The notes beneath the pieces are model-generated. The model was not told the origin of the DNA. It made no database searches and worked only from the letters and a program-made list of their open reading frames with translations. A stretch of DNA of 64,000 bases, from assembly GCF_988242995.1 (NCBI RefSeq), contig NZ_OZ547043.1. One strand, written 5' to 3'. Below are positions 42,323 through 47,272 of this stretch, piece by piece. The position numbers and the translations under genes were made by a program. Each line of letters starts with the position of its first letter. The first letter of the stretch is position 1.

Positions 42323-43402
42323 ATGAATGAGTTGGTGCAGATCCTGAAAAATACCCGTCAGCATTTAATGACGGGCGTTTCACACATGATTCCCTTCGTG
42401 GTATCGGGCGGTATTTTGCTGGCGGTTTCCGTCATGTTGTATGGCAAAGGCGCAGTGCCGGATGCCGTAGCCGATCCGAATTTGAAAAAACTGTTTGATA
42501 TCGGCGTTGCAGGTTTGACGCTGATGGTGCCTTTCCTCGCCGCTTACATTGGTTACTCCATTGCAGAACGCTCTGCGCTGGCCCCGTGCGCTATCGGTGC
42601 CTGGGTCGGCAACAGCTTTGGTGCGGGCTTCTTTGGTGCGCTGATCGCCGGGATTATTGGCGGCATCGTGGTGCATTACCTGAAGAAAATTCCGGTGCAT
42701 AAAGTTCTGCGCTCGGTGATGCCCATCTTCATCATTCCGATCGTCGGCACACTGATTACCGCAGGCATCATGATGTGGGGGCTGGGCGAGCCTGTGGGGG
42801 CATTGACCAACAGCCTGACTCAGTGGCTTCAGGGGATGCAGCAGGGCAGCATTGTTATGCTGGCGGTGATCATGGGCCTGATGCTGGCGTTCGATATGGG
42901 CGGCCCGGTTAACAAAGTGGCCTATGCCTTCATGCTGATTTGCGTTGCTCAGGGTGTATATACCGTGGTGGCCATTGCTGCCGTGGGTATTTGTATCCCG
43001 CCGCTGGGGATGGGGCTGGCGACGCTGATTGGTCGTAAAAATTTCTCCGCAGAAGAGCGCGAAACCGGCAAGGCGGCGCTGGTGATGGGGTGTGTTGGCG
43101 TTACTGAAGGGGCGATTCCTTTCGCCGCAGCCGATCCGCTGCGTGTCATTCCTTCCATCATGGTCGGTTCAGTTTGTGGTGCAGTAACTGCGGCGCTGGT
43201 CGGTGCGCAATGCTATGCAGGCTGGGGTGGTCTGATTGTGCTGCCGGTGGTTGAAGGTAAGTTGGGTTATATCGCAGCAGTGGCTGTCGGGGCGGTTGTG
43301 ACGGCAGTCTGCGTGAACGTGCTGAAAAGTCTGGCGCGTAAAAATGGGTCTTCGGCTGATGAAAAAGAAGACGACCTGGATTTGGATTTTGAAATTAATT
43401 AA
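42323..43402 (+). CDS. frwC: Fructose-like PTS permease IIC component (359 aa)
   Basis: MNELVQILKNTRQHLMTGVSHMIPFVVSGGILLAVSVMLYGKG...; polytopic membrane protein. Confidence 0.93.
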   Translation: MNELVQILKNTRQHLMTGVSHMIPFVVSGGILLAVSVMLYGKGAVPDAVADPNLKKLFDIGVAGLTLMVPFLAAYIGYSIAERSALAPCAIGAWVGNSFGAGFFGALIAGIIGGIVVHYLKKIPVHKVLRSVMPIFIIPIVGTLITAGIMMWGLGEPVGALTNSLTQWLQGMQQGSIVMLAVIMGLMLAFDMGGPVNKVAYAFMLICVAQGVYTVVAIAAVGICIPPLGMGLATLIGRKNFSAEERETGKAALVMGCVGVTEGAIPFAAADPLRVIPSIMVGSVCGAVTAALVGAQCYAGWGGLIVLPVVEGKLGYIAAVAVGAVVTAVCVNVLKSLARKNGSSADEKEDDLDLDFEIN

Positions 43403-43416
43403 TTGAGGAACGAGCC

Positions 43417-43737
43417 ATGACGAAAATTATTGCAGTAACCGCGTGTCCATCTGGTGTTGCCCATACCTATATGGCGGCAGAGGCGCTGGAAAGTGCCGCG
43501 AAAGCGAAAGGCTGGGAAGTGAAAGTAGAAACCCAGGGGTCAATTGGTCTGGAAAATGAACTGACTGCGGAAGACGTGGCGAGCGCCGATATGGTGATTC
43601 TGACCAAAGATATCGGCATCAAGTTTGAAGAGCGTTTTGCTGGCAAGACCATCGTGCGCGTCAACATCAGCGACGCGGTAAAACGCGCTGATGCCATTAT
43701 GAGCAAAATTGAAGCTCACCTGGCACAAACCGCTTAA
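43417..43737 (+). CDS. frwB: Fructose-like PTS IIB component (106 aa)
   Basis: MTKIIAVTACPSGVAHTYMAAEALESAAKAKGWEVKVETQGSIG... Confidence 0.93.
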   Translation: MTKIIAVTACPSGVAHTYMAAEALESAAKAKGWEVKVETQGSIGLENELTAEDVASADMVILTKDIGIKFEERFAGKTIVRVNISDAVKRADAIMSKIEAHLAQTA

Positions 43738-43787
43738 GTTCTTATCCCGCCCGTAAGGGCGGGTTCGCTTTCCCACAGGAGTTCCTC

Positions 43788-46085: not shown

Positions 46086-46929
46086 CGTTGTGGAAACGCG
46101 CCGCGATGATGTGGCGCGCATTTTCAACATTCAGCGTTATTCACTGAATGACGGCGAGGGCATTCGTACGGTGGTCTTTTTTAAAGGCTGTCCGCATCTT
46201 TGCCCATGGTGTGCTAATCCGGAGTCGATCTCCGGCAAAATCCAGACGGTACGCAGAGAGGCGAAATGTCTGCACTGTGCGAAATGTTTGCGTGATGCGG
46301 ATGAATGCCCGTCCGGGGCGTTTGAACGGATTGGTCGCGATATCAGCCTTGACGCGCTGGAGCGGGAAGTGATGAAAGATGACATTTTCTTTCGCACGTC
46401 CGGCGGCGGCGTCACGCTTTCTGGCGGCGAAGTGTTAATGCAGGCGGAGTTTGCGACCCGTTTTTTACAGCGACTTCGGCTGTGGGGGGTGTCATGCGCC
46501 ATTGAAACTGCCGGAGACGCGCCGACCAGCAAGTTGTTACCGCTGGCGAAATTGTGCGATGAAGTGTTGTTCGATTTAAAAATTATGGACGCGACTCAGG
46601 CGCGGGATGTGGTGAAGATGAACCTGCCACGCGTGCTGGAGAATCTGCGTTTGCTGGTGAGTGAGGGCGTCAACGTGATCCCGCGTTTACCGCTGATCCC
46701 TGGTTTCACGCTCAGCCGGGAGAATATGCAGCAGGCGCTGGACGTGCTGATCCCGCTGAATATCAAGCAGATCCATCTGTTACCGTTTCATCAGTACGGC
46801 GAGCCGAAATACCGCCTGCTGGGGAAAACATGGTCGATGAAAGAGGTTGCTACGCCGTCGTCAGCCGATGTGGCAACGATGCGTGAAATGGCAGAACGGG
46901 CCGGATTTCAGGTTACCGTGGGAGGTTAA
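46051..46929 (+). CDS. pflC: Glycyl-radical enzyme activating enzyme (radical SAM, 292 aa)
   Basis: [58 protein letters not shown] (CxxxCxxC radical-SAM cluster); overlaps pflD 3' end by 35 bp. Confidence 0.93.
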   Translation: [292 protein letters not shown]

Positions 46930-46930
46930 A

Positions 46931-47272
46931 ATGGCATACCTGGTGGCAGTAACCGCCTGCGTAAGCGGCGTGGCGCATACATATATGGCGGCGGAACGGC
47001 TGGAAAAGTTGTGCCAGTTAGAGAAGTGGGGCGTCAGCATTGAAACCCAGGGCGCGTTGGGAACGGAGAATCGTTTAGCGGACGAGGATATCCGCCGGGC
47101 GGATGTTGCGCTGTTGATTACGGATATCGAGCTTGCCGGTGCCGAGCGATTTGAACATTGTCGCTACGTGCAATGCAGTATCTACGCGTTCCTGCGTGAG
47201 CCGCAGCGGGTGATGAGCGCGGTGCGCAAAGTGCTTTCTGCGCCGCAGCAAACCCATCTCATTCTGGAGTAG
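46931..47272 (+). CDS. frwD: Fructose-like PTS IIB component 2 (113 aa)
   Basis: MAYLVAVTACVSGVAHTYMAAERLEKLCQLEKWGVSIETQGALG...; 28 upstream codons excluded. Confidence 0.92.
   Translation: MAYLVAVTACVSGVAHTYMAAERLEKLCQLEKWGVSIETQGALGTENRLADEDIRRADVALLITDIELAGAERFEHCRYVQCSIYAFLREPQRVMSAVRKVLSAPQQTHLILE

Follow-up and report, generated by a model that had tools for sequence, protein, structure and literature searches.

In Escherichia coli, two glycyl-radical enzymes (GREs), PflD and YbiW, have been connected with the anaerobic use of 1,5-anhydro-sugars. According to section 5.1 of PMC12441222, which cites Ma et al. (JACS 2024;146:26187, doi 10.1021/jacs.4c07718), PflD cleaves 1,5-anhydromannitol-6-phosphate to 1-deoxyfructose-6-phosphate by a glycyl-radical mechanism. 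Passages of the same article describe the cleavage of 1,5-anhydroglucitol-6-phosphate to 1-deoxyfructose-6-phosphate by YbiW, the start of the anaerobic 1,5-anhydroglucitol and 1,5-anhydromannitol pathways with phosphorylation to the 6-phosphate that depends on a phosphotransferase system (PTS), and growth on 1,5-anhydroglucitol, by E. coli as well as other gut bacteria, through the YbiW and PflD pathways (PMC12441222). Here we describe the pflD locus in a stretch of 64,000 nucleotides (the window) from contig NZ_OZ547043.1 of RefSeq assembly GCF_988242995.1. The region, centered on the gene cluster frwC-frwB-pflD-pflC-frwD, is very probably an enterobacterial 1,5-anhydro-D-mannitol catabolic module, the PflD branch of "radical-mediated glycolysis" ("anhydroglycolysis"). 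An initial annotation of the cluster, made from the sequence alone, had stated that its substrate was not established; that statement is out of date, as a literature check found a published PflD substrate in the account that PMC12441222 gives of Ma et al. 2024, the kind of publication that the annotation itself had named as its refutation. The functional reading of PflD is supported by the Cys-x-Glu loop of the enzyme, by purifying selection, and by the recurrence of the same gene set in other organisms.

The aldolases FsaA and FsaB are said to split 1-deoxyfructose-6-phosphate into glyceraldehyde-3-phosphate and hydroxyacetone, GldA reportedly reduces the hydroxyacetone to 1,2-propanediol, and growth on anhydromannitol is also said to occur. 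Among described systems, YbiW/YbiY with FsaA has the same chemistry and product as PflD in the account of PMC12441222. The Cys-x-Glu and RVAGY motifs are common to both enzymes, and in both cases a gene for a fructose-6-phosphate aldolase of the FSA type is adjacent. However, YbiW is 39% identical to PflD and acts on the C2 epimer, and the ybiW locus has no adjacent PTS genes or AraC-type regulator but is adjoined by the sugar phosphatase gene ybiV. Clostridium butyricum glycerol dehydratase (1R8W/1R9D), propanediol dehydratase, CutC, and HypD have the same fold family, Cys-x-Glu, and glycyl loops as PflD; unlike PflD, the glycerol dehydratase-type eliminases use small unphosphorylated substrates and are linked to neither a PTS nor an FSA aldolase. 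PflB/PflA (EC 2.3.1.54), after which the genes were named, have the glycyl-radical superfamily and a radical S-adenosylmethionine (SAM) activase in common with PflD/PflC, but PflB has a Cys-Cys pair that PflD lacks, and PflC does not reach the PflA model TIGR02493. E. coli FruBA comprises IIA, IIB, and IIC of the fructose/mannitol PTS family, as do the Frw proteins with PtsA, and FruA also has two IIB-type domains (IIB'-IIB). In the Frw system, in contrast, the components are separate polypeptides, with Enzyme I, HPr, and IIA fused in PtsA, and a radical enzyme is embedded in the cluster.

Gene content and organization of the locus

The region is the E. coli frwCB-pflDC-frwD cluster, and it is real and intact. 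In the six-frame list of open reading frames (ORFs) and in our own translation, frwC, frwB, pflD, pflC, and frwD are co-directional at 42323-47272. All five genes have an ATG start, zero internal stops, and a GGAG-type Shine-Dalgarno sequence 5 to 9 nt upstream. Of the 5,426 complete E. coli genomes, 5,425 carry the cluster DNA, for which the RefSeq names are likewise frwC, frwB, pflD, pflC, and frwD. The gene coordinates and identities given in the initial annotation matched exactly the ORFs, the RefSeq names, and the Pfam and NCBIfam assignments. The genes of the locus are as follows.

37725-38828, minus strand: gldA, 367 amino acids (aa), NAD-dependent glycerol/L-1,2-propanediol dehydrogenase, at the end of the ptsA-fsaB-gldA operon
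38839-39501, minus strand: fsaB, 220 aa, fructose-6-phosphate aldolase 2
39513-42014, minus strand: ptsA, fused HPr-Enzyme I-IIA(Fru) multiphosphoryl transfer protein
42015-42322, no strand assigned: divergent control region between ptsA and frwC, 308 bp
42323-43402, plus strand: frwC, 359 aa, fructose-family PTS IIC permease, membrane channel
43417-43737, plus strand: frwB, 106 aa, PTS IIB(Fru), phospho-cysteine carrier
43788-46085, plus strand: pflD, 765 aa, glycyl-radical enzyme of the dehydratase/eliminase clade
46051-46929, plus strand: pflC, 292 aa, radical-SAM activase for the PflD glycyl radical
46931-47272, plus strand: frwD, 113 aa, second, divergent PTS IIB(Fru) paralogue
47259-48110, minus strand: yijO, 283 aa, AraC-family regulator

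The ptsA-fsaB-gldA genes lie upstream and are divergent from frwC, with the 308-bp spacer between ptsA and frwC. The cluster composition described previously (a IIC, two IIB proteins, a GRE, an activase, and PtsA next door) was correct, but ptsA, at 39513-42014, lies outside the stated coordinates 42323-47272. Downstream, yijO is convergent and overlaps frwD by 14 nt (47259-47272), and no terminator was found between the two genes at this junction. Within the cluster, 35 nt are common to the end of pflD and the start of pflC, with the AAGGAG Shine-Dalgarno sequence of the pflC ATG inside the 3' end of pflD. The pflC stop codon ends at 46929 and the frwD ATG is at 46931, leaving a single spacer base. 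The ORF coordinates thus bear out both the 35-bp overlap and the frwD start "2 bp after pflC" that had been noted earlier. The frwB-pflD spacer is 50 nt long and contains a stable GC hairpin, and the five genes are thus not uniformly abutted. For pflD-pflC-frwD, and likewise for frwC-frwB, one operon with tight translational coupling is plausible, and the conserved hairpin may split the expression of the two halves of the cluster.

The corresponding K-12 module has the same gene set, order, gene lengths, overlaps, and control region as the window, but differs in the yijF-gldA and yijO-eptC spacers and in six PflD residues.

The glycyl-radical enzyme PflD and its activase

Across its full length of 765 residues, PflD of the window shares 99.2% identity with K-12 PflD and with the protein of PDB entry 8YJO ("Probable dehydratase PflD"), which is itself identical to K-12 PflD. 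PflD of the window contains the Pfam domains PFL-like and Gly_radical and scored 1723 bits against NF007437 (cut-off, 1109) and 1345 bits against TIGR01774 (PFL2-3). The RefSeq/NCBIfam product name attached to NF007437 is "formate C-acetyltransferase," with PflC as its activating enzyme. This name suggests that PflD and PflC could be a second pyruvate (or 2-ketoacid) formate-lyase, with the PTS importing fructose for anaerobic fermentation, and the membership of FrwC, FrwB, and FrwD in the fructose PTS family and a report, cited in PMC6643234, of PtsA in anaerobic fructose catabolism point the same way.

However, the catalytic loop of PflD is G-C419-V-E421, the Cys-x-Glu arrangement of the dehydratase type, with G741 located within RVAGY, and in an alignment with glycerol dehydratase the Cys/Glu and Gly loops match C433/E435 and the Gly loop of that enzyme. 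A Cys-Cys dipeptide like C418-C419 of PflB occurs nowhere in PflD, in which the loop reads GCVE, and the score against the pyruvate formate-lyase equivalog TIGR01255 was far below threshold (121.2 bits; cut-off, 994.2). Beyond PflD itself and a streptococcal orthologue, the solved structures closest to PflD are those of B12-independent glycerol dehydratase (1R8W; E = 7.7e-194) and other eliminases, whereas PflB is a distant match among the PDB entries (E = 3.5e-33). The depositors of 8YJO chose the term dehydratase, and the published activity, as described in PMC12441222, is the ring opening of anhydromannitol-6-phosphate. Judged by its motifs and family matches, PflD is not a true pyruvate formate-lyase, and a second formate-lyase fed by imported fructose is highly improbable. 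PflD also missed the equivalog models of GRE eliminases (for example, CutC, 515 bits versus a cut-off of 1050). Other PDB entries include 8YJN and 8ID7 for YbiW, and 8ID0 was traced to Streptococcus dysgalactiae.

PflC has the CX3CX2C motif at C47/C51/C54, as well as C73, C76, C79, and C86. It matched NF007483 (627 bits; cut-off, 326) and TIGR02494 (263 bits; cut-off, 174) and fell below the PflA model TIGR02493 (140 bits; cut-off, 232). The four additional cysteines are sufficient for one auxiliary cluster at most. A Bacillus activase has the same cysteine pattern as PflC, and the activases of the Streptococcus and Enterococcus PflD orthologues are without the insert.

A rare substitution in PflD

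Five of the six substitutions that distinguish the window PflD from that of K-12 are at variable columns. The sixth, R516L (codon 45333-45335), at an otherwise invariant Arg, is the sole departure of the window among 520 columns that are invariant in 117 homologues. Of 238 PflD-type proteins from Enterobacteriaceae and Firmicutes, 236 have Arg or Lys in column 516, the x of GGAxYN, and none has Leu, and the codon context of L516 (a 43-mer) was detected in only 17 of the 5,426 complete E. coli genomes. Comparison of pflD in the window with that of its nearest relative, another genome with L516, yielded 20 synonymous and 0 nonsynonymous differences. The L516 enzyme thus appears to be maintained. 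On the same grounds, R516L was considered as a sign of decay and rejected.

A change at a near-invariant basic position that is rare in the species and yet kept under purifying selection would fit a PflD that does cleave a phosphorylated anhydro-sugar by a radical mechanism, but for which the main substrate in vivo, or in the L516 lineage, is a compound related to 1,5-anhydromannitol. The equivalent residue does differ between GRE families with different substrates, being Lys in YbiW, Arg in HypD, Glu in glycerol dehydratase, and Ile in propanediol dehydratase, and PMC12441222 refers, in a mammalian context, to anhydromannitol as a "non-physiological polyol." Nevertheless, the other 764 residues match enzymes with published activity, comparison of the column across the solved GRE families (R, K, E, I) revealed no clean rule on substrate contact, and no structural evidence was obtained for residue 516 touching the substrate. 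The fold can accept a hydrophobic residue at this position, as in propanediol dehydratase, and because GRE families carry R, E, or I there, position 516 appears to be structurally tolerant. Thus, it seems unlikely that a related compound replaces 1,5-anhydromannitol as the main substrate.

Residue 384, one of the other five differences, is Phe in K-12 PflD, the crystallized protein, and Leu in the window and in all 117 homologues, and is therefore a K-12-specific change.

PTS proteins, FsaB, and GldA

PtsA, which is 99.0% identical to K-12 PtsA, contains the Pfam domains PTS-HPr (7-84), PEP-utilisers_N, PEP-utilizers, PEP-utilizers_C (363-653), and PTS_EIIA_2 (690-829), with phospho-site motifs at H16 (GVHARPA), H301 (GGTTSH), and H750 (AIPH). 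FrwC is 99.7% identical to its K-12 counterpart and scored 719 bits against NF007787 (cut-off, 426) and 300 bits against TIGR01427 (cut-off, 158), with zero Pfam matches at E ≤ 1e-4. FrwB is 100% identical to K-12 FrwB and scored 210 bits against NF007783 (cut-off, 135). It carries its phospho-cysteine, Cys10, in AVTACPSGVAHT and weakly matches the EIIB'BC N-terminal family of Pfam.

FrwD keeps Cys10, scored 225 bits against NF007747 (cut-off, 153), and is 44% identical to FrwB. Between E. coli and Edwardsiella, FrwD is 77% and FrwB 92% identical, so that FrwD is the faster-evolving paralogue. FrwB is the orthologue of the lone IIB in Firmicute PflD operons (57 to 61% identity), and no counterpart of FrwD was found in the four Firmicute loci examined.

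A full phosphorelay is therefore encoded with every phospho-site motif (HPr, Enzyme I, and IIA in PtsA, IIB in FrwB and FrwD, and IIC in FrwC), from which substrate specificity is not readable. The Frw components pass only the subfamily-level fructose models TIGR01427 and TIGR00829, and the equivalogs of the fructose PTS itself were missed (FrwC, 249 bits versus 793 for the FruA model NF007984; IIA of PtsA, 63 versus 302 for the FruB model NF008319). We infer that Frw and PtsA are the transporter, with PtsA as the dedicated phosphorelay of the Frw permease, and the roles suggested here for YijO, FrwD, and the hairpin are likewise inferences.

The two genes following ptsA in the divergent operon, fsaB and gldA, are both intact. 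FsaB is 99.5% identical to K-12 FsaB and scored 353 bits against TIGR00875 (cut-off, 246). GldA, also 99.5% identical to its K-12 counterpart, belongs to the Pfam family Fe-ADH and scored 752 bits against NF047954 (cut-off, 700).

Recurrence of the module in other genera

The arrangement fsaB-ptsA/frwC-frwB-pflD-pflC-frwD/yijO with gldA is found at the same chromosomal site in Salmonella and Leclercia. In Edwardsiella tarda, the module lies between pgsA-side genes and an ato-like operon and has no adjacent gldA. The 35-nt pflD/pflC and 14-nt frwD/yijO overlaps are kept in all three genera.

Four Firmicute loci were compared, from S. dysgalactiae, Enterococcus, Clostridium, and Bacillus. The Firmicute orthologues are 63 to 100% identical to the streptococcal 8ID0 protein, which scored 1,057 bits against the window PflD. 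In S. dysgalactiae, one operon has the order IIA-IIB-IIC-GRE-activase-FSA aldolase-Fe-ADH. The Bacillus locus encodes IIC, IIA, IIB, GRE, activase, FSA aldolase, HPr, and Enzyme I, and the Clostridium locus encodes a DeoR regulator, GRE, activase, FSA aldolase, and an oxidoreductase, with a second GRE and a mannose-type PTS nearby. In Enterococcus, genes for a fructose-type PTS and a DeoR regulator lie beside those for the GRE and activase, and FSA aldolase is missing. A gene of the TAL_FSA family therefore adjoins the PflD orthologue in Edwardsiella and in every Firmicute locus other than that of Enterococcus. Of the four Firmicute loci, three (Streptococcus, Enterococcus, and Bacillus) pair this GRE clade with a fructose-type PTS, and three pair it with an FSA aldolase. 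Such repeated association of the GRE clade with a fructose-type PTS and an FSA aldolase in two phyla is expected from the published pathway.

The second GRE of the Clostridium locus (15838-18243; 801 aa) lies a few kilobases from the PflD orthologue, has Val in GGAxYN, and has its own activase and DeoR regulator beside the mannose-type PTS. It may represent a parallel anhydro-sugar branch.

Proposed pathway

In the pathway proposed for this locus, PtsA would be phosphorylated by phosphoenolpyruvate and would pass the phosphoryl group from Enzyme I (H301) to HPr (H16) and IIA (H750), and from IIA to Cys10 of FrwB and possibly to FrwD. Passage of the sugar alcohol through FrwC with phosphorylation would deliver 1,5-anhydromannitol-6-phosphate. 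Under anoxia, PflC would place the radical on G741 of PflD, which would then open the ring by C-O cleavage with C419 and E421 to give 1-deoxyfructose-6-phosphate. FsaB would convert this product to glyceraldehyde-3-phosphate and hydroxyacetone, and GldA would reduce hydroxyacetone to 1,2-propanediol. Expression would start from the 308-bp divergent region, which binds CRP, and would probably also be under the control of YijO.

Several points weigh against this assignment. The choice of Frw/PtsA, rather than another PTS, as the anhydromannitol transporter is, like the FsaB and GldA reactions, supported here by gene neighborhoods. NCBIfam release 20 (2026) and RefSeq still name PflD "formate C-acetyltransferase," and the passage of PMC6643234 on PtsA refers to an older report that tied the protein to anaerobic fructose use. 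Furthermore, R516L, at a position that is otherwise basic in nearly all PflD-type proteins (236/238), may affect activity or specificity in the lineage of the window.

The cluster is a member of a characterized system and is in that sense already known; the observations on YijO, FrwD, the hairpin, and R516L are incremental. It is possible, if doubtful, that YijO is an activator that responds to anhydromannitol (or its 6-phosphate) and acts with CRP, that FrwD is an enterobacterial accessory IIB distinct from FrwB, and that R516L shifts the substrate preference of PflD.

Through the published pathway, two E. coli GREs that had long been orphans are explained, FsaA, FsaB, and GldA acquire a physiological role, and the way in which gut bacteria consume 1,5-anhydro-sugars is shown. 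In passages of PMC12441222, 1,5-anhydroglucitol is described as a clinical marker and as a toxin precursor in type Ib glycogen storage disease and G6PC3 deficiency. The product name "formate C-acetyltransferase" is misleading, and the cluster should not be labeled "function unknown."

Control region and intra-operon hairpin

The 308-bp spacer at 42015-42322 has 2 differences from K-12 (0.65%), compared to a synonymous divergence (dS) of 0.12 to 0.16 in the flanking genes, and therefore evolves approximately 15- to 25-fold more slowly than neighboring synonymous sites. In an alignment of five sequences, long blocks of the spacer were invariant across E. coli, Salmonella, Leclercia, and Edwardsiella. 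The elements located in the control region and in the frwB-pflD spacer are as follows.

42076-42091, no strand assigned: candidate CRP-like site 1, TGTGACAAATCTGCCA, 2 mismatches to TGTGA-N6-TCACA
42124-42139, no strand assigned: candidate CRP-like site 2, TGCGACGCGTCTCACA, 1 mismatch to TGTGA-N6-TCACA
42179-42194, minus strand: CRP site TGCGATCCGCCTCATA, an exact match to the ptsA/frwC site found by chromatin immunoprecipitation sequencing (ChIP-seq) in enterotoxigenic E. coli (ETEC) H10407 (PMC4287617)
43746-43763, plus strand: GC hairpin CCCGCCC-GUAA-GGGCGGG with a GNRA loop, in the frwB-pflD spacer

The ptsA/frwC site was assigned to CRP by ChIP-seq in ETEC H10407 (PMC4287617), and the same sequence, TGCGATCCGCCTCATA, is conserved in Salmonella, Leclercia, and Edwardsiella. 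CRP-like site 1 lies in a conserved alignment block, with 13 of its 16 positions invariant across the four genera, and it overlaps one copy of a GACAAAT direct repeat (copies at 42079 and 42099, 20 bp apart). In CRP-like site 2, the half-sites are conserved and the spacer between them is variable across the four genera. The GACAAAT repeat is a candidate AraC-type site.

A scan of 11 kb for sigma-70 promoters returned 3 matches, compared to 7.2 expected, with none in the frwC control region, and a relaxed scan yielded two weak minus-strand candidates only. No FNR box was present in the control region within 3 mismatches. Activator-dependent promoters would fit these results, and anaerobic control, if any, would not be exerted via an obvious FNR site.

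YijO, which is 100% identical to K-12 YijO, has a C-terminal double helix-turn-helix (Pfam HTH_18 at 192-270 and HTH_AraC at 233-269) and has been described as a transcription factor of unknown function (PMC9308461). The yijO gene accompanies the module, with the same 14-nt overlap with frwD, in Salmonella, Leclercia, and Edwardsiella, the last of which has a different chromosomal context. Because yijO travels with the module, YijO is the candidate dedicated regulator of the module, and it probably controls the module alongside CRP.

The GC hairpin between frwB and pflD, in which 7 of 7 stem pairs are GC, was the top terminator-like match of the scan, with a folding energy of -18.5 kcal/mol (z = -2.9). 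In K-12, the hairpin reads CCCGCUC-GCAA-GGGCGGG, with pairing kept via a G-U pair and with the GNRA loop kept. A similar hairpin occupies the site in Leclercia, and REP-like palindromes occupy it in Salmonella and Edwardsiella. A structured element between the permease and enzyme genes is therefore recurrent across genera. The hairpin could be a partial terminator or an mRNA-stabilizing element and may govern the balance between permease and enzyme transcripts. A scan of 36000-50500 with Rfam (E ≤ 1) returned sub-threshold noise only and no known RNA element in the cluster. The noise consisted of miRNA-like matches at approximately 37550-37640 and a weak Leu-leader match near ppc.

Selection on the module and lineage of the window

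The window and E. coli MG1655 have 97.4% DNA identity over 10.5 kb, gap-free, and the module proteins are 98.3 to 100% identical to their K-12 counterparts. The best complete-genome match to the 4,950-bp cluster was 99.1%, reached by 17 E. coli genomes. The window belongs to a rare E. coli lineage. K-12 was considered as the source and rejected on these two identities. The term "K-12" in the initial annotation of the cluster therefore describes only its best-known host.

Compared to K-12, all ten genes from yijF to yijO had dS values of 0.05 to 0.17 and ratios of nonsynonymous to synonymous divergence (dN/dS) of 0 to 0.09 (frwC, 0.008). Compared to the nearest genome, the ratio of nonsynonymous to synonymous differences per site (pN/pS) over nine module genes was 0.011. 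All module genes are under strong purifying selection.

These values bear on the view that the cluster is cryptic, a remnant in decay that serves no physiological role at present. The cluster has a history of being called cryptic, a label that was also applied to it in this window, and its control region has no strong sigma-70 promoter. However, the low dN/dS of every gene contradicts the label and, with the pN/pS against the nearest genome, indicates that the cluster is maintained. The genes are all intact and full length and are present in all but one of the complete E. coli genomes, the control region changes far more slowly than synonymous sites, and the module is conserved across genera. 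A decaying remnant is hardly credible, and the locus is best read as a maintained catabolic module for 1,5-anhydromannitol.

Other differences from K-12 in the window

The yijF-gldA spacer (37511-37689) is 179 nt long, compared to 123 nt in K-12. A long GC-rich hairpin (37500-37700; -88 kcal/mol; z = -3.9) is located there and accounts for the sub-threshold miRNA-like Rfam matches; it probably represents a repeated palindromic element close to where the gldA transcript ends. At three other sites, intergenic DNA of K-12 is missing or shorter in the window: approximately 130 nt between yiiX and metJ (24976-24978), approximately 66 nt between yijO and eptC (48217-48258), and approximately 300 nt between ppc and argE (53114-53117).

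Relative to K-12, the window also contains an insertion of approximately 700 bp (2725-3429) after the 3' end of cpxP/CpxQ and before fieF, which encodes an IS200-like Y1 transposase (Y1_Tnp; E = 7e-37). Between metL and metF, a 3-kb accessory segment (29193-32202) that is not in K-12 encodes a 376-aa Cys-rich protein without a Pfam match and a 517-aa metallophosphatase/5'-nucleotidase, and this segment is present in 1,845 of the 5,426 E. coli genomes.

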